Source of the DNA: Candidatus Omnitrophota bacterium
GTDB lineage: Bacteria; Omnitrophota; Gorgyraeia; Gygaellales; Profunditerraquicolaceae
Direction of reading: 5' to 3'
Assembly: GCA_041662125.1 (NCBI GenBank)
Contig: JBAZTA010000003.1
Coordinates: 7,992-71,991, forward strand
DNA length: 64,000 nucleotides
Position 1 is the stretch's first letter. Each line of letters opens with the position of its first letter. Made by a program: the position numbers and the translations under genes. The notes below the pieces were generated by a model. It ran no database searches and was not told the DNA's origin. It saw only the letters and a list, made by a program, of their open reading frames with translations. Below are positions 1-57,053 of the stretch, one piece after another.

Positions 1-60
1 ATCGTGTCAAAGATATTTCCCGGGATAGAGTTGTTCTGGAATCAGAAGGAAAAATATTAG
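1..60 (+). CDS. 3' end of an upstream gene (partial, ...IVSKIFPGIELFWNQKEKY*)
   Basis: Open frame running off the left edge and ending in TAG at 58-60, directly upstream of the secretin gene. Could be a pilus/T2SS inner-membrane component, but this cannot be shown from 19 residues. Confidence 0.2.
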   Translation: MVSKIFPGIELFWNQKEKY

Positions 61-70
61 AAATAACACG

Positions 71-1603
71 ATGAAGAAATTCCCTGTATTACTTATATGT
101 TTTGTTCTTATGTTCCCGTTACTTGCGCCTGCTCAAGGGGTAACGGGAAAAGTCATAACGTTAGATGTTAAAGATATCGATATTGCTGATGTTATCCGTA
201 TGATCGCTGATCAGAGCGGGATGAATATCGTTGCTTCGAAAAATGTGCAGGGGGCGGTATCGATCAGTTTAAACAATGTCCCGGTAGAGGTCGCGCTTGA
301 ATCCATATTAAAAGTAAATAATTGCGCCTATATTAAGGAAGGCGATGTTTTGGAGGTTTATACCCTCGCTGAACTAAAGCAGAAAGAGCAGTTTGCCCGT
401 CAGACGACGCGTATTTTTACCTTGCAAAATGTGAAGGCTGTTGATCTTAAGCCGATGTTGCTGTCGCTTAAATCCCCGTTAGGAAGGGTTGAAGTCGAAC
501 CGAAATCCAATCGTGTCATTGTCAGCGATATTGAAGAAAATATGAACACCTTTGATGAGGCGATACGCGAAATCGACCGAAAGATGGAGACGAAAGTTTA
601 CCGCCTTAATTATGCTAGGCCTATTGATCTGCAGAAAAATATCCTGGGGATCATTCCTGCTACTGAAGGGGATGTCCTCGTTGATGACCGCACGAATAGC
701 CTTGTGGTTACTGCTTCGCCGCTTTTATTGAATAAGCTTGATGTATTAATACGCAGCTGGGATAAGCAGGTCCCGCAGGTGTTGATAGAAGCTAAAATCA
801 TGCAGGTCACGTTGGAAAAAGGAAAATTTGTCGGATTGGATTGGAAGTATCAAAATCCCGAATCTTATTCCGTTACTGTGGGCGCAAAAGATTTGCCTAT
901 ACCGACAGGCGCGACCTACGTTGAAGCTTTTAAGATCGGTGTCCTTGATCAGGATGATTATCAGGTTACCTTACGGACCCTGGAGAAATCAAGTGACGCG
1001 AACTTGATCTCAAGCCCCAGTATCGTCGCACTTGAAAACCAGGAGGCGCGGATCCTGATAGGATCGAGTGAGCCTTATGAGGTGTTTCATTACGACGCTG
1101 AAGGCCATGTAACGGGTAAGGAGCTTAAGTTTGTGGAAGTCGGTATAAAGTTGACGGTAATTCCTAAAATTTCCGATGACGGCTATATTACGATGACTAT
1201 TCATCCGGAAGTAAGTACTCCCCGGATAGGGACGGCAACTAACGCTTTAGCTATTGATACCACCGAAGCAACGACTGTGATGACTGTTAAAAACGGCAAT
1301 ACCGTGGCCTTAGGAGGCCTCATAAAGGATGAAAAAGAAAAGCATATTGCGCGCGTTCCGATACTGGGTGAGATCCCGCTTATTAAGTACTTGTTTCAAA
1401 ACAGTTTTACAAAAATCGTAAAAAAAGAGATCATTATTTTTATCACTCCGCACATTATAGGTGGGGACCGAAAAACCATCCCCTTTACCGAATCCGGGTT
1501 TTCAGCAATGAGGGATGACGCAATGGTAAAAGCTATAGGTATATTCGCGCCTCAGGCGACCGCCGATATCAGAAATAAACGTGAGAAAAAAAATAAAAAA
1601 TAA
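71..1603 (+). CDS. Secretin (PilQ/GspD family) outer-membrane channel
   Basis: N-terminal signal peptide (MKKFPVLLICFVLMFPLLAPAQG). Secretin_N-like repeats and a C-terminal secretin domain (VTASPLLLNKLDVLIRSWD, ISSPSIVALENQEARILIGSSEPY, VPILGEIPLIKYLF). Confidence 0.85.
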   Translation: MKKFPVLLICFVLMFPLLAPAQGVTGKVITLDVKDIDIADVIRMIADQSGMNIVASKNVQGAVSISLNNVPVEVALESILKVNNCAYIKEGDVLEVYTLAELKQKEQFARQTTRIFTLQNVKAVDLKPMLLSLKSPLGRVEVEPKSNRVIVSDIEENMNTFDEAIREIDRKMETKVYRLNYARPIDLQKNILGIIPATEGDVLVDDRTNSLVVTASPLLLNKLDVLIRSWDKQVPQVLIEAKIMQVTLEKGKFVGLDWKYQNPESYSVTVGAKDLPIPTGATYVEAFKIGVLDQDDYQVTLRTLEKSSDANLISSPSIVALENQEARILIGSSEPYEVFHYDAEGHVTGKELKFVEVGIKLTVIPKISDDGYITMTIHPEVSTPRIGTATNALAIDTTEATTVMTVKNGNTVALGGLIKDEKEKHIARVPILGEIPLIKYLFQNSFTKIVKKEIIIFITPHIIGGDRKTIPFTESGFSAMRDDAMVKAIGIFAPQATADIRNKREKKNKK

Positions 1604-2360
1604 CCTTTGGGTAATTATTTCTTTTTTAGTAATTATCTTTTTGACCAGCGTTAGCCTCCAAAATAAGAAGTTCCTATCTTTGAGTTTTTCCAAAAGCCGC
1701 GATATCCCATTATTAAGCCAGGTTGACAAGAACCAAAGCCTTAATAAAAGCGTATTAAAAATCGGGGCAAAAAATAATGCGCGTTTTGATCCGCGCCTAA
1801 AATTGTTAGGCACTATAGTGGGTAATCCTTCGCTTGCGTATGTTTTTAATCTTGCAAGCAATAAAAATGAGTTTTATCGAGTTGATGATATGATCAATGA
1901 TGTCCAACTTGTCGGTATTGGATCAGGGAAGATCCTTTTGAGTAAGTTGGGTGTCACTCAAGAATTAGCATTGGGCCGAGAGGGGGCAAGGTTTGAGAAT
2001 CCGTATATTGCCGAAGAGAAGAGTAGGGATAATGAAATCGTGATCAGTAAGTCTTTTGTGTTTGAAGAGGTTAAAAGAGCAAATGAAATATTAAGGACGG
2101 TCAAGATCCTTCCTATACCGGATGAGGGTCCTACTAATCGATTAAAAGGATTCAGGATCGATAATGTGCCTGGAGGAAGTATTTTTGATAAGGCTGGATT
2201 AAAAAGTGGAGATGTGATCTGTTTTATTCAGGGGCAGAGGCTGGAAAGCGCTTTAGAAGCTGTCCGCATATTCCATACGGTTCAGAATCAGCCTGAGGTT
2301 AAGGTTGATTTGATGAGGAATAATGAAATGTTGACATTGCGATATAAAATCAGAAACTAG
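1581..2360 (+). CDS. GspC/PilP-like secretin-associated protein with C-terminal PDZ domain
   Basis: N-terminal TM helix, a central region similar to a GspC homology-region beta domain, and a PDZ-like C-terminus (GGSIFDKAGLKSGDVICFIQGQRL). Its position between the secretin and GspE supports the assignment. Confidence 0.45.
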   Translation: MRKKIKNNLWVIISFLVIIFLTSVSLQNKKFLSLSFSKSRDIPLLSQVDKNQSLNKSVLKIGAKNNARFDPRLKLLGTIVGNPSLAYVFNLASNKNEFYRVDDMINDVQLVGIGSGKILLSKLGVTQELALGREGARFENPYIAEEKSRDNEIVISKSFVFEEVKRANEILRTVKILPIPDEGPTNRLKGFRIDNVPGGSIFDKAGLKSGDVICFIQGQRLESALEAVRIFHTVQNQPEVKVDLMRNNEMLTLRYKIRN

Positions 2361-2371
2361 CCAGGGTAGAA

Positions 2372-4072
2372 GTGAAGATGAATAAAAAAATCGATCTAGA
2401 AAAAGAATTAAAGGAAAATCTTAAAATAAAAGATAATCTCTGGAAGGAATGCCTGCAAGAACAGGAAAATTCAGGTGATCTTTTAAGTAGGATCATGATC
2501 AGTAAAGGATTAGCGAGTGAAGATGACCTGCTTTTCTTGTTTTCTCGCCTGTTGAAGATCCCCTATATAAGAATTAAAGAACTGGATATCGATATTGAAT
2601 GTATTAAGAAAATCCCCGCGAAATTAGTAAAACATTATAATTTCTTCCCCCTTAAACAAGTTAACGGAAAGTTAAAGGTCGCGATCAGTGACCCCAGCGA
2701 TATCGTGCTGCTTGATGAGATCAGGCTTTTTTTAGGTGAGAATATTGAGTTTGTTATCGCTAGTTCTAAGAATATTTTAGAGTCAATTCAAGAGTTCTAT
2801 GGCTTAGGCGCGGAAACGTTAGAAAAGATGGTTACGGATGCGTCTATTGACCTGGAAATATTAAAGACGAAAAGCGATGAAGATATAAAAGATGCCACTC
2901 TTGATCCTACGGTTATTAAATTCCTCAATGAAGTTCTTGTTGAGGCAATAAAAAAACGGGCGACCGATATCCATCTTGAACCCTTTGAAGAAGAGTTGAG
3001 GATCCGCTATAGGATAGATGGCGTTTTGTATGAAGTGCCGTGTCCGGCTTCAATCAAACATTTTCAATCTTCGATCGCATCCAGGATTAAGGTTATGGCA
3101 AGCCTTGATATTACGGAAAAGCGCAGGCCCCAGGACGGCAGGATCAAGGTCCGTATGGGAAATGAAGTTTTTGATCTGCGTGTTTCGGTGTTACCGACTC
3201 CTTTTGGGGAAAGTATCGGGATAAGGATACTTTCACGGGGGACTCCGTTAATTGGGCTCGAACAATTAGGAATGCCTGTGGAAACGTTGAATATTATTGA
3301 AGAGGCGATTGTTAGGCCGTATGGGATAATTTTAGCTACCGGGCCAACGGGGAGCGGTAAAACAACCACGCTTTATTCTTGTTTAAGTAAAATAAATTCC
3401 GCACAACGAAAAATAATTACCGTTGAAGACCCCATAGAGTATCAATTAAAGGGTATTACTCAGATGCAGGTGGAGCCGAAGATCGGCTTTACCTTTGCCA
3501 CTGCGCTGCGTTCAATGTTGCGCCATGACCCTAATGTCATGATGGTTGGCGAGATCCGCGATACCGAAACTGCGGAATTGGCGGTAAGGACTTCTTTGAC
3601 CGGGCATTTGGTTTTTAGTACCCTGCATACAAATGACGCTGCCGGGGCAATCGCGCGGCTTTCAGATATGGGAGTTGATACATTTTTGGTTTCTTCTTCG
3701 ATCAATCTGATCATCGCGCAGAGATTGGTAAGGCTTATTTGCCCTGATTGTAAAGATGAAGTTTCTCCTCAGCAAGAATTTTTGCAGAAATTTGATGCTA
3801 ACGATAAACTTAATATACAGTTTTACCATGGCAGCGGATGTGAAAAGTGTCGTTTTACCGGATATCAAGGCAGAAGTGGTATTTTTGAAGTGCTGGTTGT
3901 AAATGATGATATAAAGGCAATGATCCTTAATAATGTCGCCCCGAATAAGCTGAAACAAAAAGCCATTTCTTTAGGGATGAAGACATTACGTGATGCTGGT
4001 TTGGAAAAGGTAAAAAAAGGGTTGACTACGTTAGAAGAAGTAGTCAGGGTGACGCAAGAAGAAGAGGGGTAG
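2372..4072 (+). CDS. gspE: Type II secretion / type IV pilus assembly ATPase (GspE/PilB family)
   Basis: T2SSE N-domain and Walker A GPTGSGKTTT. Asp and His boxes (VMMVGEIRDTETAELAVRTSLTGHLVFSTLHTND). Tetracysteine Zn motif CPDC...CEKC. Confidence 0.9.
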   Translation: MKMNKKIDLEKELKENLKIKDNLWKECLQEQENSGDLLSRIMISKGLASEDDLLFLFSRLLKIPYIRIKELDIDIECIKKIPAKLVKHYNFFPLKQVNGKLKVAISDPSDIVLLDEIRLFLGENIEFVIASSKNILESIQEFYGLGAETLEKMVTDASIDLEILKTKSDEDIKDATLDPTVIKFLNEVLVEAIKKRATDIHLEPFEEELRIRYRIDGVLYEVPCPASIKHFQSSIASRIKVMASLDITEKRRPQDGRIKVRMGNEVFDLRVSVLPTPFGESIGIRILSRGTPLIGLEQLGMPVETLNIIEEAIVRPYGIILATGPTGSGKTTTLYSCLSKINSAQRKIITVEDPIEYQLKGITQMQVEPKIGFTFATALRSMLRHDPNVMMVGEIRDTETAELAVRTSLTGHLVFSTLHTNDAAGAIARLSDMGVDTFLVSSSINLIIAQRLVRLICPDCKDEVSPQQEFLQKFDANDKLNIQFYHGSGCEKCRFTGYQGRSGIFEVLVVNDDIKAMILNNVAPNKLKQKAISLGMKTLRDAGLEKVKKGLTTLEEVVRVTQEEEG

Positions 4073-4083
4073 TTGTTGGTCGT

Positions 4084-4896
4084 ATGAAGAATAAAGATCA
4101 CATGAAACTCATAATTCTGGCAGTATTAACGCTGGTAACTTATATTCCGACATTTATCTGGATGGTTCAGCGATGGAGCGCTGCTGATACTTACTATAGC
4201 CATGGATTCCTTATTCCTTTGATAAGTTGTTTCATTGTTTGGCGTAAGAGGGAGATTTTATGTAAATTACTTAAAGAATCTTCTGGTTGGGGGTGGTTGT
4301 TTTTTATTGTTGGGGTAGTTATCCATAGTATCAGTGCTCTTTGGCAAGTGTCTTTTTCTTCCGGGTTTTCTTTAATTCTTGTTTTGATCGGTTTAATCCT
4401 GTTGTTTTATGGAAAAGATTTTTTAAAGCATCTAATGTTTCCTGTGTTGTTTTTAGTTTTTATGATCCCCTTGCCCATGGTTGCAATTGCGAATTTAAGC
4501 TTTCGCTTAAAGATCTTCGCTTCGCAGATAGCAACGATAATTGTTAATAAGCTGGGCATTTTGGCAATACGGGAGGGAAGTGTCATAAAAACAGCGCACT
4601 CTTATGTTGTGGTGGAAGATCCGTGTTCCGGAATACGTTCACTGATCGCTTTGATCGCTTTGGGTGTTTTGATGGCATATCTAAGCAATGTGTCTCGCAC
4701 AAAAAAGATGATCCTGTTTTTATCTTCAATCCCAATCGCATTATGCGCAAACATAATAAGAATAACTGTTTTAGCGTTAATCAGTGAAATCTACGGTTCG
4801 GCGGTTGCCACAGGAAAGGTCCATGATGTTATGGGAGTCCTGGTTTTTGTTTTTGCTTTTGCTGGGCTTGCGATGGTCAGAAAGATATTAGAATAA
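4084..4896 (+). CDS. Exosortase (EpsH/Xrt family transpeptidase)
   Basis: Polytopic membrane protein with the hallmark YSHGFLIPLI motif and the active-site-like DPCSGIRSL (Cys-x-G-x-R-S-L). It is followed by an EpsI-like gene and PEP-CTERM substrates. Confidence 0.78.
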   Translation: MKNKDHMKLIILAVLTLVTYIPTFIWMVQRWSAADTYYSHGFLIPLISCFIVWRKREILCKLLKESSGWGWLFFIVGVVIHSISALWQVSFSSGFSLILVLIGLILLFYGKDFLKHLMFPVLFLVFMIPLPMVAIANLSFRLKIFASQIATIIVNKLGILAIREGSVIKTAHSYVVVEDPCSGIRSLIALIALGVLMAYLSNVSRTKKMILFLSSIPIALCANIIRITVLALISEIYGSAVATGKVHDVMGVLVFVFAFAGLAMVRKILE

Positions 4897-4897
4897 G

Positions 4898-5518
4898 ATG
4901 AATAATAAAATTTATTCAATTGTTGTGGTAATCTTAGTTTTTGCGGCATTAATTAGTTATGCCGCTTATTTTCCCACCAAACTTGCTTCTCAGACAGAAA
5001 GGATGATCTCTGATTTTCCTTTAGTAATCGGCGAGTGGACTGGTGAGGATATGGTTTTAAGTGACAGGGTGTATGAGTTATTAGAAACCAGGAATTTGAT
5101 CATGCGTAACTACCATAATAAAAAGGGCGAAATCATCAATCTTTATATCGTTTATTCTCAAGATAACCGAAAGGTCAGTCATCCTCCGGAAATTTGTTTG
5201 CAAGGAGATGGCGCAGCTATTGTTGATAAATCTACTCTTCAAGTAACAGATTCGATAGTAGCAAATAAATTAGTTATAGAGAAAGAGTTATCCCGGGAAT
5301 TAGGCGTTTATTGGTATAAAGCGGGAAAAGTGTATTCAAATAATTATATATTACAGCAATTGAGGTCATCTTTAGGGGGGATGTTTGGAAAGCGGGTATC
5401 TTCCGCGTTAATCAGGGTATTAACTTCGGTTGAAGGTGGAAAAGATGATCTGGCGTTAACTAGAATTAAGGAGTTTTGTAGGCTTATTGAGCCTTTGTTG
5501 CCGCAGTATGTGCCGTAA
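4898..5518 (+). CDS. Exosortase-associated EpsI-family protein
   Basis: About 200 aa with one N-terminal TM helix, immediately downstream of the exosortase with a 1-nt gap. This is the typical EpsH-EpsI arrangement. Confidence 0.55.
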   Translation: MNNKIYSIVVVILVFAALISYAAYFPTKLASQTERMISDFPLVIGEWTGEDMVLSDRVYELLETRNLIMRNYHNKKGEIINLYIVYSQDNRKVSHPPEICLQGDGAAIVDKSTLQVTDSIVANKLVIEKELSRELGVYWYKAGKVYSNNYILQQLRSSLGGMFGKRVSSALIRVLTSVEGGKDDLALTRIKEFCRLIEPLLPQYVP

Positions 5519-5528
5519 TTTGTAATTT

Positions 5529-5582
5529 AAGACCCGGTCTTATCTGTAACTAAGTGTTACATGCCAAGACCGGGTCTTTTTA
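5529..5582 (+). terminator. Hairpin plus T-run terminator; also copy A of the REP-like palindromic repeat family
   Basis: AAGACCCGGTCTT ... AAGACCGGGTCTT inverted repeat with about a 24-nt loop, followed by TTTTT, just after the EpsI stop. Confidence 0.6.
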
Positions 5583-5621
5583 TGTTGTTGCTACCCGTAT
5601 AATTTGTTTATAATAGTAAAG

Positions 5622-5650
5622 AGTAGTTATCTTATTTATTTATAACTACT
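5622..5650. promoter_or_regulatory. Perfect 9-bp inverted repeat AGTAGTTAT-N11-ATAACTACT (candidate enhancer/UAS)
   Basis: Lies about 180 bp upstream of a sigma-54-like -24/-12 element, in a 300-bp AT-rich leader. Confidence 0.3.
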
Positions 5651-5818
5651 TATGATAATATCACCTGAAAACGCTTTCAATGATGTTGAAATTAGTGAAC
5701 AACCGCATTCTATAGTATTTCCCCTTTTCTAATTAATTATTTTTTAACAAGAAAAACAATAGAAGTATCTGCAGTATATATACTTAAAAACTTAATAAAA
5801 TTATTTATAAATATAGGG

Positions 5819-5835
5819 TTGGCATGGATAATGCT
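5819..5835 (+). promoter_or_regulatory. Candidate sigma-54 (-24/-12) promoter TTGGCATGGATAATGCT
   Basis: GG and GC dinucleotides spaced exactly as in TGGCAC-N5-TTGC. Sits about 45 bp upstream of the sugar-transferase start. rpoN and a sigma-54 activator are encoded nearby. Confidence 0.45.
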
Positions 5836-5880
5836 CTTAAGAAGATGATGGATTCATAGAAAATGAATTAAAAGGAAAAG

Positions 5881-6753
5881 ATGGGTAAAAAGACTATAAA
5901 AAAGAGAAAGTTTGAACGAACAATGAAAAGAATCAGTGTTGGCATATTATTAGTAATGTTGCTTTTTGTTTTAGAGCCTGTTTTGAGGGGTAAAGATATC
6001 TTTGCTATCACTTATTTGGGAAATCCGATTTCCTATGAACAAAACAATCAAATGAGCGTAGAATTTACTCAAACTCCGATTAAGAAGACTTTTGCCCCGG
6101 AACCGAGCTCATTTTTACTCATTTTGGGCGGTATTGGCGGGATCATTATTAGTTTTGTCCGCAGAAGCTTTGATAAGATTAAAAGAGGTTTGGACCTTAT
6201 TTTGGCTATTATTGGTTTGATCATTGGTTCTCCATTACTTATTCTAGCTGCAATCTTTATTAAGATCGATTCCCGAGGGCCTATTGTATATCAACAGAAC
6301 AGAGTTGGCAGGCGCGGGAAGATCTTTAAGATATATAAGCTTAGGACAATGAGGTTGGATGCAGAAAAAGGGACCGGTGCTGTTTGGGCAAAAAGAAACG
6401 ATCCTCGTATTACCGAAATTGGCAAGTTCTTAAGAAAAACGAGAATTGATGAAATTCCTCAATTAATTAATGTTTTAAAGGGTGAAATGAGTATTGTTGG
6501 CCCTCGTCCGGAAAGGCCTGAAATGGTTGTGGATTTTAAGAAGCTTATTTGTGACTATGAGAAAAGGCTTATTGTTAAACCTGGTATAACCGGACTTTCC
6601 CAAATATATAATAGGTACGATGAAACAATAGCTGATGTTAGGAAAAAGGTTAAGTATGATCTTTTATATATAAGGAAAATGTGCTTGTGGGTAGAGATGC
6701 GGATTTTAGCTCAGACTGTCTTTGTTGTTTTTACAGGAAAAGGCGCTAATTAG
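5881..6753 (+). CDS. Bacterial sugar transferase (polyprenyl glycosylphosphotransferase, EpsB/WbaP-C family) with an N-terminal signal peptide and an internal PEP-CTERM-like segment
   Basis: The C-terminal 200 aa carry sugar-transferase motifs (KRGLDLILAIIGL..., DEIPQLINVLKGEMSIVGPRPE). Residues ~72-96 read APEPSSFLLILGGIGGIIISFVRRS, which is a PEP-CTERM signature: PEP, a TM stretch, then Arg-Arg. Confidence 0.8.
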   Translation: MGKKTIKKRKFERTMKRISVGILLVMLLFVLEPVLRGKDIFAITYLGNPISYEQNNQMSVEFTQTPIKKTFAPEPSSFLLILGGIGGIIISFVRRSFDKIKRGLDLILAIIGLIIGSPLLILAAIFIKIDSRGPIVYQQNRVGRRGKIFKIYKLRTMRLDAEKGTGAVWAKRNDPRITEIGKFLRKTRIDEIPQLINVLKGEMSIVGPRPERPEMVVDFKKLICDYEKRLIVKPGITGLSQIYNRYDETIADVRKKVKYDLLYIRKMCLWVEMRILAQTVFVVFTGKGAN

Positions 6754-6768
6754 AAAGGGAATGAAAAT

Positions 6769-7293
6769 ATGAAGAAATTATTAATAGCGTTATTGTTAGT
6801 TGTAGGAGTATTTGCTCTTTCCAAGTCTGCGTTCGCAATACCGTACGCTGATGTCATTAACTACAATTCTCTTATGACAATTGGAATGAGCCACACGTAT
6901 AATTTTAATCTCAATACTGATACTTTGCTCGATGGGGATATTAATGCTGAAGACCAAATTAATTCAGCTGCACTGGCAATTAGCTTTTTTGATGATGAGA
7001 CTGATACGTGGAGACCATCTACTTGGGAACTATCATTGATTGATGTCGATAGTGACCTATACTTATGGGATACTGGTACTTTTCAGGCTAATGTTTACAA
7101 TAGAGTGGTCAATGATCATCAGTTGGAAGTTACCGTTACTAGCTTGTGGGGTGATTTTAATTTAGGTAATGCTTCGTTATCTGGTGATTATACGAATTTG
7201 CCTACTACAGCTCCGGTTCCTGAACCGGCTTCATTGTCTCTTTTAGGTATTGGTTTGTTGGGTTTATTGGGTGGTTTACGAAGGATTAACTAG
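6769..7293 (+). CDS. PEP-CTERM sorting-domain secreted protein
   Basis: Signal peptide. C-terminus reads TTAPVPEPASLSLLGIGLLGLLGGLRRIN followed by stop. Confidence 0.88.
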   Translation: MKKLLIALLLVVGVFALSKSAFAIPYADVINYNSLMTIGMSHTYNFNLNTDTLLDGDINAEDQINSAALAISFFDDETDTWRPSTWELSLIDVDSDLYLWDTGTFQANVYNRVVNDHQLEVTVTSLWGDFNLGNASLSGDYTNLPTTAPVPEPASLSLLGIGLLGLLGGLRRIN

Positions 7294-7356
7294 TTAAGGA
7301 AGATTCTTAGAGCTTAACTAATTGAAAATAGAGAAAAAGAGAGGGGGTGAGAAATA

Positions 7357-7986
7357 GTGAAAAAAGTTATTTTTTTCTTAATTGCGGTTTCGTTTGTTTT
7401 AGGGCTAAACGCAAGTGCTTTTGCTCTTCCGTTTAGTTCTTTAGGTTGGGTTGATCCTAATTATAGCAATTCATGGGATCCTACTACGTCAACTGGTACT
7501 GCAAGGTACCATTTTGATTGGAGTGATCCAGATGTTAGCGTCACATCATTAGAGTTACAATTCGAAGGAGACATTTTTAATTTAAGTCTTCTCGATGCGA
7601 GTGATTTTAATGTAGTAGCGCCTCCATCATGGACTACGACAATGTGGATAGATAATGGAGTGTCTCATTGGGGAATTTCGAGTGGATTAGGAGTTGATTT
7701 TACTCAGTCACCAATAGTAGTTGATGTGAACTATACACTTCTTTCTTCTAGTCGTTATTCATTTGGAGATAGTACTTATGCTGGAGATCTTAATCAATGG
7801 GGATGGGATGAAGCTCAGGGGGCCAATAATGCTTGGTCGCAGAAATATGATTTAGTGGGTACTAGTATTTCGAGCGGCAGGTTGTATACAAGCCCTGGTT
7901 CAACAGCTCCAGTTCCAGAGCCAGCTACAATGTCGTTATTAGGGATAGGTATTTTGGGATTATTTGGTTTACGAAGAAAGTCCTAG
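7357..7986 (+). CDS. PEP-CTERM sorting-domain secreted protein
   Basis: Signal peptide. C-terminus reads STAPVPEPATMSLLGIGILGLFGLRRKS followed by stop. Confidence 0.88.
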   Translation: MKKVIFFLIAVSFVLGLNASAFALPFSSLGWVDPNYSNSWDPTTSTGTARYHFDWSDPDVSVTSLELQFEGDIFNLSLLDASDFNVVAPPSWTTTMWIDNGVSHWGISSGLGVDFTQSPIVVDVNYTLLSSSRYSFGDSTYAGDLNQWGWDEAQGANNAWSQKYDLVGTSISSGRLYTSPGSTAPVPEPATMSLLGIGILGLFGLRRKS

Positions 7987-8205: not shown

Positions 8206-9129
8206 ATGAATCCTCAGACCACTAAATTCCCTTCACTAAAGAAAGTATACAATAATACTTTTAGCTTCTTAAAACACAATAAGTTACTATTTATTCCCTT
8301 TATTATCTTTTCAATCCTTGAACTGCTCGCGTTGATTTTTATCTACATTTCTCCCCGTATGCCGTTTGTTATTGTTTTAGGACCGCCTATCAAAGCATTT
8401 TTTGGAGCGCAATTCTTGCATTATCCCATGAATTTTGTTTTAATTCCAAAATTAGCGGGTATCTCGCGAAGTGTTTTGTCGATATTAGTGGGGGCACTTT
8501 TAAGCGCGGTGGCAGTGCAAGTCATTTTTAATCTTTATGAGAAGAAAACGGTAAGGATGATCAATGTCTTTAAAGCGTTACTGAAGAAATATGCTTCTTT
8601 GTTTCTTGTCGTATTGGTCATAACTATAGTATTTCATGGAGCTTTACAATTACCCGCATTAGGTTTAAAGTCATATTTTCTCACCGGCCACAAAACACTC
8701 TTATTTTTAAAACCAGCCATGTGGTTTGGTTCGATTTTAGCAGGTATTAGTTTTATAATTTCAATCTTTGTTCAGGGTTGTTTTGCTTACGTGATCCCGG
8801 TTTTGGTGATTGAAAAAGTAAATCCCTTCAAAGCGCTCTTGAGATCATGCGGTTTATTCTTTAAGTCTTTCTTTCCAACCATTATGTTAGTCGGTATCCC
8901 CATGTTGGCGTATGTGCCAATTATTATTTTGCAGTATAATACGCTTTTCATCATAAATAAGTTTTACCCGGAATTAGTGTTGTTTGTTGCTTTGCTAAAT
9001 GTGTTGGTTACTTCTTTGTTTGTCGATGTATTGATCACTGTTTCTACAACTTTGTTTTACCTTACCTATAAAGATAACTTAACACAAGGTAAGAAAACGT
9101 TGAATATAGCTCAAGAGACGCAAAAATGA
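8206..9129 (+). CDS. Polytopic integral membrane protein, function unknown
   Basis: Roughly 8 predicted hydrophobic helices. No recognisable catalytic motif. Confidence 0.5.
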   Translation: MNPQTTKFPSLKKVYNNTFSFLKHNKLLFIPFIIFSILELLALIFIYISPRMPFVIVLGPPIKAFFGAQFLHYPMNFVLIPKLAGISRSVLSILVGALLSAVAVQVIFNLYEKKTVRMINVFKALLKKYASLFLVVLVITIVFHGALQLPALGLKSYFLTGHKTLLFLKPAMWFGSILAGISFIISIFVQGCFAYVIPVLVIEKVNPFKALLRSCGLFFKSFFPTIMLVGIPMLAYVPIIILQYNTLFIINKFYPELVLFVALLNVLVTSLFVDVLITVSTTLFYLTYKDNLTQGKKTLNIAQETQK

Positions 9130-9974
9130 AAAAAACATTGTTTTCTAAAATTGTTTTTATTTTTATGGTTGTCTTCCTGGTTGGATGTTCATCGAATGAT
9201 CAATATTCTGTTGAGAGAAAATACTGGAAGATCAAAAAGCTGGCGGAGAAAGTTTTTAAAAATCCGGTAGCAACTCCTCCAAACGAATTAGAGCGTGTTG
9301 TCAGCCGTTCTGAAGAATTCATTAAGGAATATGCGGCCAATCCCTTATCAATAGAAGCCTCTTTTAATATTGCTCGTTTATATATTGTAAAAGAAGAATA
9401 TGAATCGGCCCGTAAGCAATTGCAGAAGATACTTCAGGCAAATAAGAAGTCGCCGGTCATTTGTTCTGAAGCTCTGTTTTTAATCGGTAACGCCTATCAG
9501 TTGCAGGATAAATGGAGCTTGGCTTTAGAGCAGTATAAGAAGATCACCCGGGAATATCCGACTACGGTCAAGGCCCTTGATATACCTATATTTATTGCCC
9601 AGAATTATAAGGTTAAAAATCAACCTGAAAAAATGATCGTGGCGTATCAGGATGCAATAGGGCAATATAGGACGCTCATTGAAACGTATCCAAATTCTTT
9701 GTTAGCATTTAATGCCTATTTGTTAGTAGCTCAATGTCATATAGCTTTAAAAGATTGGCAAATGGCCGTTAAAACTTTTGAAACGGTCATTGAAAAGTTT
9801 AACGGTAAGGCAAAAATGGACGGGGCGATGTTTGAGATGGCGATTATATATGCCAAGCAATTAAAAGATACAGGGAAAGCTAAAGAAATACTTGATAGAT
9901 TGAACAAAGAGTATCCAAAGAGCAGGTATAGTAAAGTATCGTTGCTTTTAATTAAGGAGTTGGATAAACAATGA
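9126..9974 (+). CDS. TPR-repeat lipoprotein
   Basis: Lipobox FLVGCSS. Several TPR-like helical repeats. Overlaps its neighbours by 4 nt, so it is co-translated with the two-component system. Confidence 0.6.
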   Translation: MKKTLFSKIVFIFMVVFLVGCSSNDQYSVERKYWKIKKLAEKVFKNPVATPPNELERVVSRSEEFIKEYAANPLSIEASFNIARLYIVKEEYESARKQLQKILQANKKSPVICSEALFLIGNAYQLQDKWSLALEQYKKITREYPTTVKALDIPIFIAQNYKVKNQPEKMIVAYQDAIGQYRTLIETYPNSLLAFNAYLLVAQCHIALKDWQMAVKTFETVIEKFNGKAKMDGAMFEMAIIYAKQLKDTGKAKEILDRLNKEYPKSRYSKVSLLLIKELDKQ

Positions 9975-11179
9975 CAGAACTTCGGATATTAGAGAATAAA
10001 GATTCCGGCGGGATACTTAAGCATTTCTTAAGCAGGACGCTTAAAGAGATAATGTCAGTGGTGCACGCGGAACGCGGGTCTTTGTTTTTGTTTGATTGCG
10101 AGCATAAGGAACTTGTTTTAAACACTTTTTATGTGCCTGAAAATACTGCTTTAAAAGAACTTCGCCAGAGGCTAGGGGAAGGTATTGCCGGGAAAGTTGC
10201 TGATATTAAAATCCCTATTTTAGTAAAAGATATAAAATGCGATTCTCGTTTTAAGCAGAATGGGTTCAGCCATTATCAGACGAATTCATTTATGTCGATA
10301 CCAATTTTTACCTCTGAGCGGCTCTTGGGATTGATCAATTTAGCGGATAAATCAACGGGTGGGCATTTTTCAGAAGAAGACCTGAATTTAGCGGTGACGA
10401 TCTCAAAATACGCCTGCCTTGCCCTTGAAAGCTTGAATAGTTATACCGGATTGAAACAGGAAAAAGAGGCTTTAGACAAGCAGAAAGCGTTATTAGAAAA
10501 GTATGCTTCAGTAGGAAAGCTTGCCGCCGGTATCGTTCATCAGATCAATAATCCTCTTGACGGGGTTATCCGATACGCCAATATTCTGCTCGATCAGATG
10601 GAAGATAATTCCGCGACGAGGGAGTATCTTTTAGAAATTACCAAAGGGCTCAACCGTATTGCTAAGATCACTCGCTCGCTTTTGGAGTTTTCACGCCAGA
10701 TCAATTTAAGTACCTCACATCATAAACACTATGTTGATATCCATACTTTGATAGAGGAATCTTTAGATGTCTTTGGAGAAGTTATTGACGGTACTATTAA
10801 GATCGAGAAGAATTTTGTTGCTGATCTGCCGAAAATCCTGGATTTTGGGTTGTCCCATGTGATAATTAATATAATTGAAAACGCCTTGGATGTTATGCCT
10901 AAAGGAGGCGTTTTATCGATAGAAACCGCGCTTAAAGAGTCCTGGGTTGCTATTACGATCATGGATACAGGTTGCGGTATCCCTGAAGAGGTCTTAAAAC
11001 GGATCTTTGAGCCGTTTTTTACGACCAAAAGTATGGATAAAGGCACGGGGTTAGGCTTGGCGATCAGCCAGGAGATCATTAATAAGTACGGCGGGTCAAT
11101 TAAAGTGCAGAGCGTTGTTAAAAAGGGGAGTTCTTTTACCATTTTAATTCCGAAAACATTCTTAAAAAATGCTGAATAA
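9971..11179 (+). CDS. Cytoplasmic sensor histidine kinase (GAF-HisKA-HATPase_c)
   Basis: N-terminal GAF domain. H-box IVHQINNPLDG. N, G1 and G2 boxes (DTGCGIPEE, GTGLGLAI). Confidence 0.85.
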   Translation: MTELRILENKDSGGILKHFLSRTLKEIMSVVHAERGSLFLFDCEHKELVLNTFYVPENTALKELRQRLGEGIAGKVADIKIPILVKDIKCDSRFKQNGFSHYQTNSFMSIPIFTSERLLGLINLADKSTGGHFSEEDLNLAVTISKYACLALESLNSYTGLKQEKEALDKQKALLEKYASVGKLAAGIVHQINNPLDGVIRYANILLDQMEDNSATREYLLEITKGLNRIAKITRSLLEFSRQINLSTSHHKHYVDIHTLIEESLDVFGEVIDGTIKIEKNFVADLPKILDFGLSHVIINIIENALDVMPKGGVLSIETALKESWVAITIMDTGCGIPEEVLKRIFEPFFTTKSMDKGTGLGLAISQEIINKYGGSIKVQSVVKKGSSFTILIPKTFLKNAE

Positions 11180-12569
11180 CACAAATTTAAATAAAAACGG
11201 GCATATACTTGTTGTTGATGATGAGCCTTTAGTGCGCGGTTCTCTTACGGAACTCTTGACGCTTTCCGGTTATACTGTCAGCGCCGCAAATAACGGTAAA
11301 GAAGCGATCGATTTCTTGAAGAATTATACCGTTGATCTTGTGATAAGCGATATTAAAATGCCGGAAATAGATGGGACACAATTATTAAAACAAATTAAGA
11401 AAGATCATGCGGATACTCCGGTCATTATGATCACCGGGTATGGAAGTATTGAAAATGCGGTCGAAGCGGTAAAAGAAGGGGCGTATGATTATATCACCAA
11501 GCCTATCGTAGACAGCGAAATAAAGCTTGTTATTGAACGATTGTTGAAAGACCGCCAGCTTCATGAAGAAAACATTAAGCTTAAAGAACAATTGTCTATT
11601 TCACAAAGGACGCGTTTTCATAATATTGTCGGTAAAGATGAAAAAATGCAGAAAATTTATTCGTTGATCGAGGCTATTGCCAAAACGAGAGCGACTATTC
11701 TGATACAGGGAGAAAGCGGGACCGGCAAGCGTATGATCGCGCATGCGATACATAAATATAACGAAGTTGAGCGGGAAAAGCCTTTTGTTGAAGTAAGCTG
11801 TGGGGCTTTGACTGAAACTTTGCTTGAGGGCGAGCTTTTTGGCCATGTTAAAGGAGCTTTTACCGGAGCCATTAGAGACAGGATCGGGCGGTTTGAATTA
11901 GCCGATGGGGGGACGATATTCTTAGACGAAATCGACGCTTTTTCGCCGGCGTTACAGGTAAAATTATTACGGGTCCTGCAGGAAGGGGAGTTTGAGCGCG
12001 TTGGCGATACTAAGACTTTAAAGGTTGATGTGCGGGTGATTGCCGCGACAAATCAGAATCTCCAGGATTTGATCAGTAAAGGAACGTTTCGTATGGATTT
12101 ATACTACCGGTTAAATATTATTGCAATTGACCTTCCTCCCTTGCGGGAGCGAAGAAATGATATCCCGCTTTTGGCTGAAGATTTTATTCTGAAACACTCC
12201 CAGCATATCAACAAGAAAATTGAAGGGTTATCTGATGAGGCGTTGTCAATATTAAAAAGTTATCAGTGGCCCGGTAATGTCAGGGAATTAGAAAATGTCA
12301 TAGAGCGGGCGATCATTTTATCCCAGGGGCCGGTGATTACGCGTGAAGATCTGCCGGAATATTTGCATAAGCTCGGGAATACAAACCTGTTGACTTCTGA
12401 AGAAAACTATCTAAAATTAAGAGAAGCTTTAAAATCACCTGAGAAGGATTTAATAGTAAAAGCTCTTGAGTCGGTGAATTGGAGCCGTAATGATGCCGCC
12501 TCGGTGTTGGGGATCAATAGGACGACCTTATATAAAAAGATGTGTAAATATGGACTCTTAAAGAAATAA
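11169..12569 (+). CDS. Sigma-54-dependent response regulator (REC-AAA+-HTH, NtrC/PrsR-like)
   Basis: REC domain with phospho-Asp DIKMPEIDG. Walker A GESGTGKR. GAFTGA motif. C-terminal Fis-type HTH. Confidence 0.9.
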   Translation: MLNNTNLNKNGHILVVDDEPLVRGSLTELLTLSGYTVSAANNGKEAIDFLKNYTVDLVISDIKMPEIDGTQLLKQIKKDHADTPVIMITGYGSIENAVEAVKEGAYDYITKPIVDSEIKLVIERLLKDRQLHEENIKLKEQLSISQRTRFHNIVGKDEKMQKIYSLIEAIAKTRATILIQGESGTGKRMIAHAIHKYNEVEREKPFVEVSCGALTETLLEGELFGHVKGAFTGAIRDRIGRFELADGGTIFLDEIDAFSPALQVKLLRVLQEGEFERVGDTKTLKVDVRVIAATNQNLQDLISKGTFRMDLYYRLNIIAIDLPPLRERRNDIPLLAEDFILKHSQHINKKIEGLSDEALSILKSYQWPGNVRELENVIERAIILSQGPVITREDLPEYLHKLGNTNLLTSEENYLKLREALKSPEKDLIVKALESVNWSRNDAASVLGINRTTLYKKMCKYGLLKK

Positions 12570-12582
12570 CCTTGAGAAAAGC

Positions 12583-13569
12583 ATGAATACAGATGAATTA
12601 GATATAAGAAGTATTATCGATATTAAGAAGTGGCAGCAAATTCAGGATAGTTTTTCCGCTATTACTGAATTGGGGTTACGTGTTGTCGATTCTAAAGGTA
12701 ACGCGCTTACTTTTTCCAGCGGTGAGCCCAGGCTTTGCAGGGAACTTTTGGATGACCCTGCCATTAAAAACCGGGTGTGCGGCAGGTGTTTGCCGACTTT
12801 CCTGGGGGGGAAAGGCGTTGTGGACAGAAATTTGAATTTTGTTACCTGCGCGGGCATGCATAATTGCATAGCCCCGTTGAAAGTAGATAATAAAGTGTTT
12901 GCGTATTTGGTGATGGGCCCGGTTATTTTGGTGAGGCGTAATGCAAAAGAACAATACAAATCGGCTGCTGAAGAATTGGGTTTAGACCTGGATGATCTCT
13001 GGAATGCTTTATTGGAAATAAAGGTTGTTTCTTTTAATTGGGCGCAGTCATTGGTAGAATTTATCAGGGATATTTATGAATATGTCCTTAAACTGGCATA
13101 TCAGGCAAGGTTTAAGAGTAAAGATGTAGTTTCAGTTGATATATTGAAACTCAACCGTATATTAGAGGTTTTACTTGACGCTGCTTTTCAGATCAGCGGC
13201 GCTGATATTGGATCGGTGATGTTTCTTGATGAAAGTAAGAATAAGCTTACTATCCGCGCCTCAAAAGGGCTTTCTGATGAGGTGGTCAGGACTACCAATA
13301 TCGGGTTAGAAGAGGGGGTTTCCGGCATTGCGTTAAAAGAGAAAGCGTCTCTGTTAATCGATGATAACCTCAAAGATAATAGGGTGAAACGGTATCTGCA
13401 CCGTCCGTATATCAGTTCTTCGATGATCATTCCGATCAAGATCAAAAGTGAGATGCAGGGGGTTATTAATTTAGGGACTTTAGCGAGTTCGTCAGTCAAG
13501 TTTAATCTGAGTAGTATGAATTTGATCAATAGGATCGTTGATTTGGCAAGTGTGGCATTGCATTCGTAG
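12583..13569 (+). CDS. Sensory protein with PocR-like N-terminal domain and C-terminal GAF domain
   Basis: N-terminal Cys/His-rich PocR-like segment (CRELL..CGRC..CAGMHNCIAP). C-terminal GAF-like region. No output domain. Confidence 0.45.
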   Translation: MNTDELDIRSIIDIKKWQQIQDSFSAITELGLRVVDSKGNALTFSSGEPRLCRELLDDPAIKNRVCGRCLPTFLGGKGVVDRNLNFVTCAGMHNCIAPLKVDNKVFAYLVMGPVILVRRNAKEQYKSAAEELGLDLDDLWNALLEIKVVSFNWAQSLVEFIRDIYEYVLKLAYQARFKSKDVVSVDILKLNRILEVLLDAAFQISGADIGSVMFLDESKNKLTIRASKGLSDEVVRTTNIGLEEGVSGIALKEKASLLIDDNLKDNRVKRYLHRPYISSSMIIPIKIKSEMQGVINLGTLASSSVKFNLSSMNLINRIVDLASVALHS

Positions 13570-13593: not shown

Positions 13594-13727
13594 AAGACCC
13601 GGTCTTGGCTGTAATTTAAAAATACCAGTTAAGACCGGGTCTTTTTGCGTATAAGACCGGGACTTGAATTGTAGTATTTTATCATTGATAAGTCCCGGTC
13701 TTGAAATGTGATTCAGACCGGGTCTTA
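13594..13727. repeat. REP-like palindromic repeat cluster, copy B (three hairpins)
   Basis: AAGACCCGGTCTT...AAGACCGGGTCTT, AAGACCGGGACTT...AAGTCCCGGTCTT, CAGACCGGGTCTTAG. Sits between convergent genes and abuts the rpoN stop. Confidence 0.7.
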
Positions 13728-15065
13728 GCGTTCTTTTCGGAAAGTTGAAGAGAGGATCTTAAGTTCTTCGCGGTATTTTGCGACAGTGCGCCTGGCGAGG
13801 TTTAAGTTATCTTCACTAGAGAGGATCTTTACTATATCCTGGTCGCTTAATGGTTGTTTTTTGTTTTCTTTGTCGATTAATTCTTTAATGCGGCTTTTAA
13901 CTACGGTTGAAGAGATAGATTCGCCGTTTTTATGATGGATGTGGCTTGAGAAGAAATTCTTAAGCGCGATAACCCCGCAGGGAGTTTTCGCGTATTTGTT
14001 CATTACTACCCGGCAAACGGTAGATTCGTGTAAGTCAAGTTTGTCGGCGATCTCTTTGAAGGTGAGCGGCTTCATTTGAGAGAGGTCTTCCCGTATTGCT
14101 TCTCCTTGGATCTCGGTGATCGTATTGACTACCCTGCGTAACGTGCTTTTCCTTTTTTCAATGGCTTTTATCAGTTCAAGGGCTTTACGTAATTTATTGG
14201 TGATGAATTCTCTGGTTTTCGGGTCAAGATCCTCTTTTTTAAGCAGATCTTTGTATAGTTTACTGACAGTCAGGCGAGGGATATATTCATGGTTTATAAT
14301 TATTTCGAATCCATCGCTTTTTTCTTCGATGAGGATGTCGGGGACGATTCTGTGAGCTTCATCAAGGGAATAATTCCGTCCCGGTTTCGGGTTTAATTTC
14401 ATGATCTTTTTAATTGATACTTCGATCTTCTCCAGCGGTTCTTTTAATACTTTCGAAATATGGTTATAGTTTTTTTTGGCAATGTCGTCAAGATGGTGCA
14501 GGCAGATCGCTTTTGTGAGAGGATCGAGTTCATTCAATAATTTTAATTGTATGAGTAAACATTCAGAAATGGTCCTGGCGCCCACGCCTGAGGGCTCAAA
14601 TTGTTGTATTAAGGAAAGCACTTTTTCGATCTTTGCCTCTGAAGCGTGTATTTGAACAGCCATTCCTTCCGTCGAAGATTGTAAATATCCATTTTCGTCT
14701 ATATTCCCGATAATTTCCTGGCCTATTTTAAGCTCTTCGTCTGAATTGGTAAACATGCCTAATTGCCGCAATAAGACATCTTGAAGAGATACTTTGTTCA
14801 TCAAAAGAGACGTGTTGGTTTCGTTATCTTGAGTTTGGGTATTATTGGGTAATGAAGGAGGAGAGTTTAATCTTGCAAGATCTTCCGGTGAAAGAGGGGA
14901 GGTGATCTCTTCTTGAGAAGAAAATTCCTCCAGAACAGGGTTAGTAAGAAGTTCTTCTTCTACCACTTGGTTTAGGTCTAGCAGATGCAGCGTTAAGATG
15001 TTTAACGATTGCCGCATTTCGGGAGCTAAAACCCGCCTGAATTCGAACCTTTGTCTTAATTCCAT
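13725..15065 (-). CDS. rpoN: RNA polymerase sigma-54 factor
   Basis: Acidic/Gln-rich region, core-binding domain, and the C-terminal RpoN box ARRTVAKYRE. Confidence 0.9.
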   Translation of the reverse strand: MELRQRFEFRRVLAPEMRQSLNILTLHLLDLNQVVEEELLTNPVLEEFSSQEEITSPLSPEDLARLNSPPSLPNNTQTQDNETNTSLLMNKVSLQDVLLRQLGMFTNSDEELKIGQEIIGNIDENGYLQSSTEGMAVQIHASEAKIEKVLSLIQQFEPSGVGARTISECLLIQLKLLNELDPLTKAICLHHLDDIAKKNYNHISKVLKEPLEKIEVSIKKIMKLNPKPGRNYSLDEAHRIVPDILIEEKSDGFEIIINHEYIPRLTVSKLYKDLLKKEDLDPKTREFITNKLRKALELIKAIEKRKSTLRRVVNTITEIQGEAIREDLSQMKPLTFKEIADKLDLHESTVCRVVMNKYAKTPCGVIALKNFFSSHIHHKNGESISSTVVKSRIKELIDKENKKQPLSDQDIVKILSSEDNLNLARRTVAKYREELKILSSTFRKER

Positions 15066-15148
15066 TTAATAAGTATAGCATAAAATGTGCCAATTTGCCT
15101 GTTTTGGGGGTATTTTTATAGGAAAGGCGGGTGTGCGGCTTACTGCGT

Positions 15149-15333: not shown

Positions 15334-16068
15334 GTGCATAAAGAAACCATAGGACATAGTGAATTTACCTTTAAGTTTGTTGAAGAACCTGTTTTAATGG
15401 ATCAGGTCTACCGCCTGCGTTTTCAGGTATATTGCGAAGAATGCAAGTTTATTAGAGAAGAAGAATACCCTGATAACCGCGAACAGGATAAATATGACCA
15501 GTACGCGCTTCATTTTGTCGTGGAAGACAACTTTGAAGTAATCGGCACTATGCGGCTGATCCTTGATTCTTCTGTAGGCTTTCCGATCGAAGAGCGCTGT
15601 GGTGCTGACTTAAAATTCGATAAAAAAAGTGTAGCCCGCAATAAGATAGCGGAGATCTCCCGCCTTGTTATCAGTAAAGATTATCGGCGTAGAAAAGACG
15701 ATGGGTTGTATTATACTCCTGAATTTGATGAGAAATCTCTCCTGGGGAATTCGAATAATCCTTTTCGCCGGATCAGGACTATGACCTTTGGGATGTATCG
15801 CGAACTATATCATGAAAGCAAACGTCGGGGCCTGACGCATTGGTACGCGCTCATGGAGAAATCATTGTGGAAATTATTGGACTTGAATGGGTTTACTTTT
15901 AAGCCTATCGGCCAAGAAATTGATTATTATGGTGTGGTGACCCCGTATATTGGAGTTATTGAAGAAATCGAGCGGGAATTTTATAAGAAGTATCCGCAGT
16001 TCTTTACTAAGTTTTTTCTTGATGGTTTAGAAACCCAATTTCATCCGGAATTCCTTTCTTCTGCATAA
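15334..16068 (+). CDS. GNAT-fold N-acyl amino acid synthase-like acyltransferase (FeeM / autoinducer-synthase-like; exosortase-system-associated type)
   Basis: About 240 aa. Sequence pattern FTFKFVEEP...YRLRFQVYCEEC...GTMRLILD...EISRLVISKDYRR is typical of long-chain N-acyl amino acid synthases. It sits directly upstream of an acyl-activating enzyme. Confidence 0.5.
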   Translation: MHKETIGHSEFTFKFVEEPVLMDQVYRLRFQVYCEECKFIREEEYPDNREQDKYDQYALHFVVEDNFEVIGTMRLILDSSVGFPIEERCGADLKFDKKSVARNKIAEISRLVISKDYRRRKDDGLYYTPEFDEKSLLGNSNNPFRRIRTMTFGMYRELYHESKRRGLTHWYALMEKSLWKLLDLNGFTFKPIGQEIDYYGVVTPYIGVIEEIEREFYKKYPQFFTKFFLDGLETQFHPEFLSSA

Positions 16069-56169: not shown

Positions 56170-56278
56170 AAATTAAAAAACCTCAGGATACTAAAGAATT
56201 AAATCCTTTAGTATCCTGAAGTTATGTTATTTCTATACTGTTAGCCTGTAGTGTTCCATTAGGCAATAGTATAAAATA

Positions 56279-56980: not shown

Positions 56981-57053
56981 GTTTACTGCCCTCCTTTTAG
57001 GGTTGTGAATAGTTAGTTTTTTGAAATTTAAAGCTTAAATCAAACCACCTCCT

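Follow-up and report, generated by a model that had tools for sequence, protein, structure and literature searches.

Coupling between a type II secretion system (T2SS) and C-terminal protein sorting is already known from several bacterial systems. The T2SS is needed for surface display of the substrates of rhombosortase (GlyGly-CTERM) and of myxosortase (MYXO-CTERM), and a divergent T2SS subclass co-occurs with the Synerg-CTERM signal. PEP-CTERM proteins have been proposed to cross the outer membrane by a route that was left open (Haft et al. 2006); a GspE ranked just 34th in that study's profiling list for a reference genome, and what the exosortase attaches PEP-CTERM proteins to has been an open question since that description. 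Here we analyze a 64-kb stretch of DNA (the window) from a Candidatus Omnitrophota bacterium (contig JBAZTA010000003.1), concentrating on positions 71-7986, where T2SS-type genes stand directly upstream of an exosortase gene. An earlier note on this DNA, made from the letters alone, had remarked that the described PEP-CTERM/exosortase models do not include a secretin and a GspE ATPase upstream of the sortase. Our literature search agrees, in that we found no report of a T2SS (secretin/GspE) operon joined to an exosortase. T2SS coupling to C-terminal sorting is established, and the variant presented here, a T2SS operon joined to an exosortase, appears to be new.

Families were assigned to the eight open reading frames (ORFs) of positions 71-7986 by hidden Markov model (HMM) searches with Pfam and NCBIfam/TIGRFAM cut-offs. 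All eight ORFs lie on the + strand at the coordinates given here, and the E-values of the assignments are far beyond chance. The first five encode a secretin of the GspD/PilQ family (71-1603; N0/STN, two Secretin_N and the secretin domain; Pfam Secretin 2.1e-43), a GspC-like protein that we call PDZ2 (1581-2360; transmembrane (TM) helix, HR-like region and C-terminal PDZ domain), a GspE/PilB-type ATPase with an MshEN N-domain (2372-4072; T2SSE 4.6e-132), an exosortase (4084-4896; Exosortase_EpsH 1e-62), and the exosortase-associated protein EpsI (DUF3485; 4898-5518; TIGR02914 88.3 versus a cut-off of 42.8). They are followed by a priming polyprenyl-phosphate sugar transferase, here called PEP-PGT (5881-6753; Bac_transf 3.2e-66), and by two PEP-CTERM proteins (6769-7293 and 7357-7986), which score 20.9 and 25.0 with TIGR02595 (cut-off 16). 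The first of these has a signal peptide and a C-terminal VPEPAS, TM helix and RR, and the sorting motifs of both proteins can also be read directly in the sequence. The HMM searches therefore bear out the gene list of the earlier note: secretin, PDZ/GspC-like protein, GspE, exosortase, EpsI, sugar transferase and two PEP-CTERM proteins, all on one strand.

The individual assignments differ in how specific they are. The secretin falls below both the PilQ and the GspD NCBIfam cut-offs (GspD equivalog 251 bits versus 351); its best solved-structure match is the T2SS GspD, 5wln, and the domain searches show no AMIN domain. PDZ2, the second GspC paralogue of the operon, aligns to TIGR01713 over residues 63-247 (3.6e-15; 56 bits versus a cut-off of 101.6) and to NF041515 (1.1e-20; 74.6 versus 150), and it carries a PDZ_2 domain. 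The ATPase scores 603.8 with the GspE model TIGR02533 (cut-off 630) and 603.3 with the PilB model (cut-off 675.65), so by these scores it is not assignable to GspE over PilB; its Walker A, Asp box, Walker B, His box and tetra-Cys motifs are all intact. Control of this ATPase by cyclic di-GMP was considered and found unsupported, the MshE-type motif model giving 16.7 bits versus a cut-off of 38. The ORF at 4084 is an exosortase, as the earlier note had it: TIGR02602 gives 162.9 versus a cut-off of 105.55, and the catalytic residues Cys181, Arg226 and His247 are invariant among 30 homologues. It is XrtA-like and lies under the XrtA cut-off.

The secretion genes and the sortase genes are tightly packed. 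The secretin and PDZ2 genes overlap by 23 nucleotides (nt), PDZ2 and GspE are 11 nt apart, GspE and the exosortase are again 11 nt apart (the close packing described before holds, with 11 nt in place of the 12 given then), and the exosortase and EpsI are separated by 1 nt. Upstream, the stop codon of a PilP-like gene overlaps the ATG of the secretin (ATGA). Downstream of EpsI there is a gap of 362 nt, which contains a terminator-like hairpin and U-run (5529-5585, + strand). This hairpin, the first strong terminator of the operon, has a folding energy of -29.1 kcal/mol (z = -7.6), a stability that none of 200 shuffles reaches. Further along the same gap a sigma-54 type -24/-12 motif, TGGCATGGATAATGCT (5820-5835, + strand), lies 45 nt ahead of the transferase ATG. 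Of 27 distinct loci, 18 have the motif TGGCA[CT]-N5-ATGCT ahead of their transferase orthologue, and this motif is the predicted promoter that would head a unit of the transferase and the PEP-CTERM genes. A scan for sigma-70 promoters was uninformative (47 sites versus 37.5 expected).

Because the gaps are short, the terminator comes after EpsI and the sigma-54 promoter comes before the transferase, we take the secretion genes to be co-operonic with the exosortase and EpsI. Two transcription units are thus predicted: the genes running from the secretin through EpsI make up one, and the transferase and PEP-CTERM genes make up the other, which would depend on sigma-54. It had been claimed that the secretion trio is co-operonic with both the exosortase/EpsI pair and the PEP-CTERM cargo; the first half of this claim stands, and the second is contradicted by the terminator and the sigma-54 promoter.

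The window begins inside the operon. Positions 3-71 (+ strand) encode RVKDISRDRVVLESEGKILEITR*, the last 23 codons of a gene, and 21 of the 23 residues are those at the C-terminus of a PilP/GspC-HR-like protein (5518-5991, with weak T2SSC and GspC_delta matches) in L001. This locus, the single relative returned by a scan of genome contigs, belongs to the nearest genome; its exosortase is 77% and its secretin 92% identical to those of the window. Genes for GspL and GspM (or PilM/N/O) are expected upstream of the window start, and their order was read from L001 instead. There, the secretin is preceded by a CFI-box-CTERM protein, a divergently oriented HTH-cupin regulator, a first GspC paralogue (GspC-PDZ1), a PilM-PilN fusion, PilO and the PilP/GspC-HR-like protein. 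The suggestion that pilM/N/O/P-like genes lie upstream is thus supported both by the PilP-like tail at 3-71 and by the gene order of L001. The "minimal trio" of secretin, GspC-like protein and GspE is in part an effect of the window edge, since 3-71 is the tail of an upstream PilP-like gene and L001 has more genes upstream; the three genes are the 3' part of a larger operon. What remains of the description is the reduction itself, GspF and GspG being missing both here and in L001.

A metagenome scan for exosortase relatives yielded 80 loci, and several of these, together with loci reached through the secretin, hold a fuller form of the same operon. In L007, L025, L050, L086 and L088 a GspF of 399-400 amino acids separates GspE from the exosortase; in L090 and L091, where the exosortase gene is absent from the locus, GspF follows GspE. 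In L023 just the C-terminal end of GspF is visible, directly upstream of the exosortase. The GspF of the orthologous operons scores better as T2SS GspF than as PilC. A highly conserved pseudopilin stands ahead of PilM-N in L025, L086, L088, L091 and L094, and because the L088 protein passes the GspG equivalog cut-off (TIGR01710 155.9 versus 88.85), the orthogroup is T2SS-type. PDZ2 sits between the secretin and GspE also in L001, L007, L025, L050, L086, L088, L090 and L093. In L093 the reduction goes further, GspE, GspF and GspG all being absent.

Ratios of nonsynonymous to synonymous substitution (dN/dS) between the window and L001 are 0.07 for the secretin and 0.08 for GspE, at dS values of 0.7-0.9, and 0.20 for PDZ2 and 0.09 for the exosortase. 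For the secretin and GspE this means strong purifying selection. Both genomes compared are GspF-less, and the low values argue against decay of the reduced operon.

Seen from the secretin, the link to the PEP-CTERM system is constant. In Omnitrophota the secretin orthogroup comprises about 78 protein clusters at 54-69% identity, after which there is a break to 47% or less. From this orthogroup we chose six orthologues without regard to the exosortase (L086, L088, L090, L091, L093 and L094); L094 was left out as uninformative, as its sequence ends inside GspF. The operon is complete in L086 and L088, and after it come the exosortase (Xrt), EpsI, the transferase and PEP-CTERM genes. In L090 the transferase and two PEP-CTERM genes come after GspF, in L091 four PEP-CTERM genes do, and in L093 PDZ2 is followed by the transferase, kinase and regulator. 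In all five, Xrt-EpsI, PEP-PGT or PEP-CTERM genes begin within ~0.6 kb of the last T2SS gene. The exosortase gene is absent from the L090, L091 and L093 loci, and PEP-CTERM-system genes still adjoin the T2SS; that the link outlasts loss of the exosortase gene points to an association with the PEP-CTERM system as a whole. When these five are taken with the loci reached through the exosortase (the window, L001, L007, L023, L025 and L050), PEP-CTERM-system genes lie directly downstream in 11 of 11 informative loci. The arrangement recurs in independent lineages. Matches to the secretin, GspF and exosortase lie on contigs of the same lengths (124,574 and 19,173 bp), as do matches to the secretin and exosortase (15,807 bp).

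PEP-PGT, the transferase between EpsI and the PEP-CTERM genes, consists of an N-terminal signal anchor, a periplasmic linker of ~40 residues, an internal PEP-CTERM-like motif, a re-entrant helix and the catalytic domain. The internal motif (APEPS, TM helix and RR, residues 73-95) scores 17.3 bits with the Pfam PEP-CTERM model, below the cut-off of 20.7, and has the same topology as the motif of a true exosortase substrate. It is kept in 23 of 25 distinct orthologues (these include L001, L007, L016, L020, L086, L088 and L090), and the other two carry APEF. We found no description of an internal PEP-CTERM-like motif on such a transferase in the literature searched. Judging from its form, the motif could dock the transferase on the exosortase, or it could be cleaved by the exosortase.

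The locus resembles the GlyGly-CTERM and MYXO-CTERM systems in having a tripartite C-terminal signal and an inner-membrane sorting enzyme, with passage of the anchored protein through a T2SS, a step that is proposed here from the genes. It differs in that the sorting enzyme is an exosortase (Cys/Arg/His), unrelated to rhomboid or Rce1-type proteases. It also differs, from Synerg-CTERM as well, in having the T2SS genes in the sortase operon itself, whereas in those systems the two are linked by co-occurrence or genetics. The canonical Gsp T2SS shares with our set of loci a secretin with N0, GspC-like HR and PDZ proteins and GspE, as well as GspG and GspF in the orthologues. Here, a PilM-N fusion and PilO stand in place of GspL and GspM, there are two GspC paralogues and a PilP-like protein, the window lineage has no GspF or GspG, and no GspH-K or prepilin peptidase is found in the retrieved loci.

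Another close relative is the XrtA/PEP-CTERM exopolysaccharide (EPS) system (Haft et al. 2006; the Zoogloea and Aquincola floc systems). Both have an exosortase, EpsI, PEP-CTERM proteins and a priming transferase, together with a histidine kinase, a sigma-54 response regulator, a TPR protein, sigma-54 promoters and an exosortase-associated acyltransferase. The EpsI (TIGR02914) and acyltransferase (TIGR03694) models pass here, whereas XrtA scores 179.4 versus a cut-off of 208 and the PrsK, PrsR, PrsT and EpsB_2 models are also below their cut-offs; the architecture is analogous. Unlike the XrtA system, this locus has a T2SS operon upstream and a transferase with an internal PEP-CTERM-like motif, and no Wza, Wzc or GspA-like genes were seen at the window locus. 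Within the same phylum, the T2SS-like loci with giant genes (West-Roberts et al. 2023 preprint) likewise place T2SS-type genes beside a very large putative adhesin. The published locus differs in that over 10 subunits, rcpC and a PPIase among them, lie beside the giant genes. The text of that preprint and that of a 2026 Omnitrophota genome survey contain neither PEP-CTERM nor exosortase.

Our favored reading, which we offer as a serious possibility a little short of an even chance, is that PEP-CTERM proteins, once processed by the exosortase, cross the outer membrane through a dedicated, modular T2SS. The earlier note had proposed an export route for such substrates, and this is plausible by analogy with the GlyGly-CTERM and MYXO-CTERM systems and from the conserved gene context. 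From gene content and order, predicted transcription signals, conservation and selection, we infer each functional step as follows. A PrsK/PrsR-like two-component system with sigma-54 would turn on the PEP-PGT and PEP-CTERM genes. Sec would export the PEP-CTERM proteins, whose C-terminal helix would hold them in the inner membrane until the exosortase, with EpsI, cuts each protein at its PEP motif and joins it to an acceptor, a lipid or a glycolipid. This acceptor would perhaps be made by PEP-PGT and the neighboring acyltransferase/ligase genes, and PEP-PGT would perhaps be recruited to the exosortase via its own PEP-type helix. The T2SS would then bring the folded, membrane-anchored protein to the surface of the cell by way of the secretin, as has been shown for the GlyGly-CTERM and MYXO-CTERM substrates. 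The window lineage, without GspG and GspF, would have to borrow these parts from another T2SS or type IV pilus (T4P) system or else work in a reduced mode. The more specific proposal, in which the T2SS is the dedicated PEP-CTERM translocon and PEP-PGT docks on the exosortase via its PEP helix and supplies a lipid-linked sugar acceptor, so that sorting, glycolipid anchoring and secretion are coupled in one locus, is one that we regard as rather doubtful.

If such a coupled pathway were real, it would give the first genetic indication of the route that exosortase substrates take and of their acceptor. The linkage of the T2SS operon to PEP-CTERM genes over deep divergence provides concrete candidate genes for the outer-membrane step, and the conserved PEP-type helix of the transferase hints at a candidate pathway for the acceptor. 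In addition, the machine is modular, with a complete form, a form without GspG and GspF, and a secretin-only module, and this modularity bears on the sharing of T2SS parts between systems in the small-genome Omnitrophota.

Several observations weigh against this reading of a dedicated T2SS. Seen from the exosortase, the arrangement is uncommon: in 44 distinct loci of the close clade, each with at least 400 nt of upstream sequence, the upstream neighbor is a T2SS gene in 6, GT2 in 25, GT4 in one, a CFI-box protein in one and something else in 11. In L013 a CFI-box protein adjoins the exosortase directly, without an intervening T2SS. The matches listed include no orthogroup secretin or GspF on seven long contigs (180-650 kb) with T2SS-less exosortase loci, and the T2SS is therefore dispensable for most members of the exosortase clade. 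The 11 of 11 count from the secretin side does not represent 11 independent events, because the loci share ancestry. The T2SS operon also adjoins another candidate cargo, a large CFI-box-CTERM protein. Components are missing as well. No GspF homologue was found in the 64-kb window by tblastn, and the best 120 matches to GspF, a list that does not extend to the other contigs of the metagenome-assembled genomes, include no orthologue on the 395,841-bp contig of the window or on the 676-868-kb contig of L001, where a relocated copy had been looked for. Neither the window nor L001 has a GspG homologue or a prepilin motif, the motif being absent also when the pattern is widened to allow Ala at position -1 as in the orthologues. 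The minor pseudopilins GspH-K and the prepilin peptidase GspO were found neither in the window nor in the Pfam-labelled lists of L086, L088, L090, L091, L093 and L094; they may be encoded elsewhere in the genome.

The exosortase count also rejects the idea that the adjacency is universal for this exosortase clade. L023 makes a seventh T2SS-upstream case, on a shorter flank, and L003 and L005 have GT/Wzy clusters upstream of the exosortase. In a neighbor-joining tree the T2SS-linked exosortases form a basal grade and one large derived clade is wholly without T2SS; the basal position fits an ancestral linkage. The conservation of the secretin-GspE-exosortase adjacency, which the earlier note had made its test, holds in that the arrangement is found again in at least 10 further distinct loci of Omnitrophota, with the qualification that it is a minority arrangement when counted from the exosortase. 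A second, differently arranged adjacency was seen on the short contig L078 (2-2869), where an exosortase (68% identical) and EpsI are followed by a paralogous GspE-type ATPase, 41% identical to that of the window. Mobile and defense genes (AbiEii, HepT/MNT toxin-antitoxin, ORF6N, Fic, AAA_14/DUF4143, 23S rRNA IVP) are inserted within L005 (8512-12995), L088 (2305-4686) and L093 (5125-7697). Their insertion points differ, and in L005 the exosortase is separated from EpsI; the exosortase/T2SS locus therefore tolerates insertions.

The gene neighborhood permits other accounts of the secretion genes. The cargo of the T2SS might be the large (0.9-2 thousand amino acids), adhesin-like CFI-box-CTERM protein at the head of the operon, with the exosortase nearby because both belong to a co-regulated surface/adhesion island. 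A large protein ending in a Gly-run, CFIATAAYG and an NF041770 domain does stand just upstream of GspC-PDZ1 in L001 (167-1138), L088 (1-2160), L091 (1-572), L093 (1-4192) and L094 (735-6437), and T2SS-like loci beside giant genes are on record for this phylum. (The term "CFI-box" did not occur in the literature searched.) We nevertheless consider this account unlikely. The CFI-box protein of L013 (2-2686) directly adjoins the exosortase in the absence of a T2SS and is thereby tied to the exosortase too, the large protein of L086 has no CFI-box, near-zero spacing is seen at the GspE/GspF-exosortase junctions and not at the adhesin-gene junction, and the published giant-gene locus has a different composition, as described above. 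That the operon is without any specific functional link, a general T2SS or T4P-like system kept in place by inherited synteny and here a decaying remnant, seems to us distinctly unlikely. The absence of GspF and GspG from the window and L001, the further reduction of L093, the absence of the module from most exosortase loci and an ATPase equally near PilB and GspE are all as this account would have them. Decay, however, is at odds with the dN/dS values of 0.07-0.08, and mere synteny with a linkage that is kept in 11 of 11 informative loci, down to 54% secretin identity and through rearrangements that lose the exosortase yet keep PEP-CTERM genes adjacent. Moreover, a paralogous GspF group (37-44% identity) shows that the phylum has a general T2SS or T4P system apart from this one.

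Another possibility is that the secretin machine exports a polysaccharide or glycoconjugate begun by the adjacent priming transferase and so replaces a Wza-type exporter. The T2SS module is always near PEP-PGT; the transferase of L093 comes immediately after the secretin and PDZ2, and GspE, GspF, the exosortase and PEP-CTERM genes are all absent there; and family searches found no Wza-like gene at the window locus. Moreover, in L092 (10001-20257) a 43% identical secretin stands alone before Wzz/GNVR, an AAA_31 tyrosine-kinase-like ATPase, Wzx, glycosyltransferases and Wzy, at the spot where one would look for a Wza exporter. We still judge polysaccharide export very improbable, as the complete operons hold GspG, GspE, GspF and GspC, which are protein-secretion machinery. 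In L091 GspF is followed by four PEP-CTERM genes and by no transferase, homologues of Wzx, Wzy, GT2 and GT4 are absent from the 64-kb window, and L095, whose secretin belongs to the same 43% group as that of L092, lies beside SecY and SecDF and not in an EPS cluster. The general claim that the 43% group consists of EPS-exporting secretins was not kept, since L092 fits it and L095 does not.

The locus extends downstream of position 7986. A multi-pass membrane protein of 307 amino acids without a family match (8206-9129, + strand) is kept in most loci between the PEP-CTERM and TPR genes, and it appears to be an uncharacterized core component of the exosortase system. A TPR lipoprotein (9126-9974, +) takes the position of PrsT and is much smaller (PrsT 32 versus a cut-off of 312). 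It is followed by a sensor histidine kinase in the PrsK position (9971-11179, +; PrsK 104 bits versus a cut-off of 300), whose L003 orthologue has GAF, HisKA and HATPase domains, and by a PrsR-like, sigma-54-dependent response regulator (11169-12569, +; TIGR02915 416 versus 502.6). A PocR and GAF sensory protein (12583-13569, +) comes after the response regulator in other loci too. RpoN (sigma-54) is encoded on the opposite strand (13725-15065, -; TIGR02395 393 versus a cut-off of 277). A sigma-54-like motif, TGGCACATTTTATGCT, at 15077-15092 (-) lies ~12 nt upstream of the rpoN start (15065) and may reflect rpoN autoregulation or a chance match.

Beyond rpoN lie a PEP-CTERM/exosortase system-associated acyltransferase (15334-16068, +; TIGR03694 189.9 versus a cut-off of 111.95) and an AMP-dependent acyl ligase/PlsC-type acyltransferase fusion identified by family search (16074-18767, +), a candidate that may make the lipid acceptor or anchor. 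The acyl-ligase gene is followed by a LAGLIDADG_3 ORF (18858-19700, +), and a similar ORF is found at the edge of L093 (21245-21518). Elsewhere in the window, a 930-residue protein (52442-55234, -) has T2SS-T3SS_pil_N (RcpC/CpaC-type), SdrD_B and CarboxypepD_reg domains. It is flanked by large ORFs without a Pfam family at 55252-58466 (-) and 48206-51457 (+) (1083 and 470 amino acids), and this region may be another pilus- or secretion-related surface locus.

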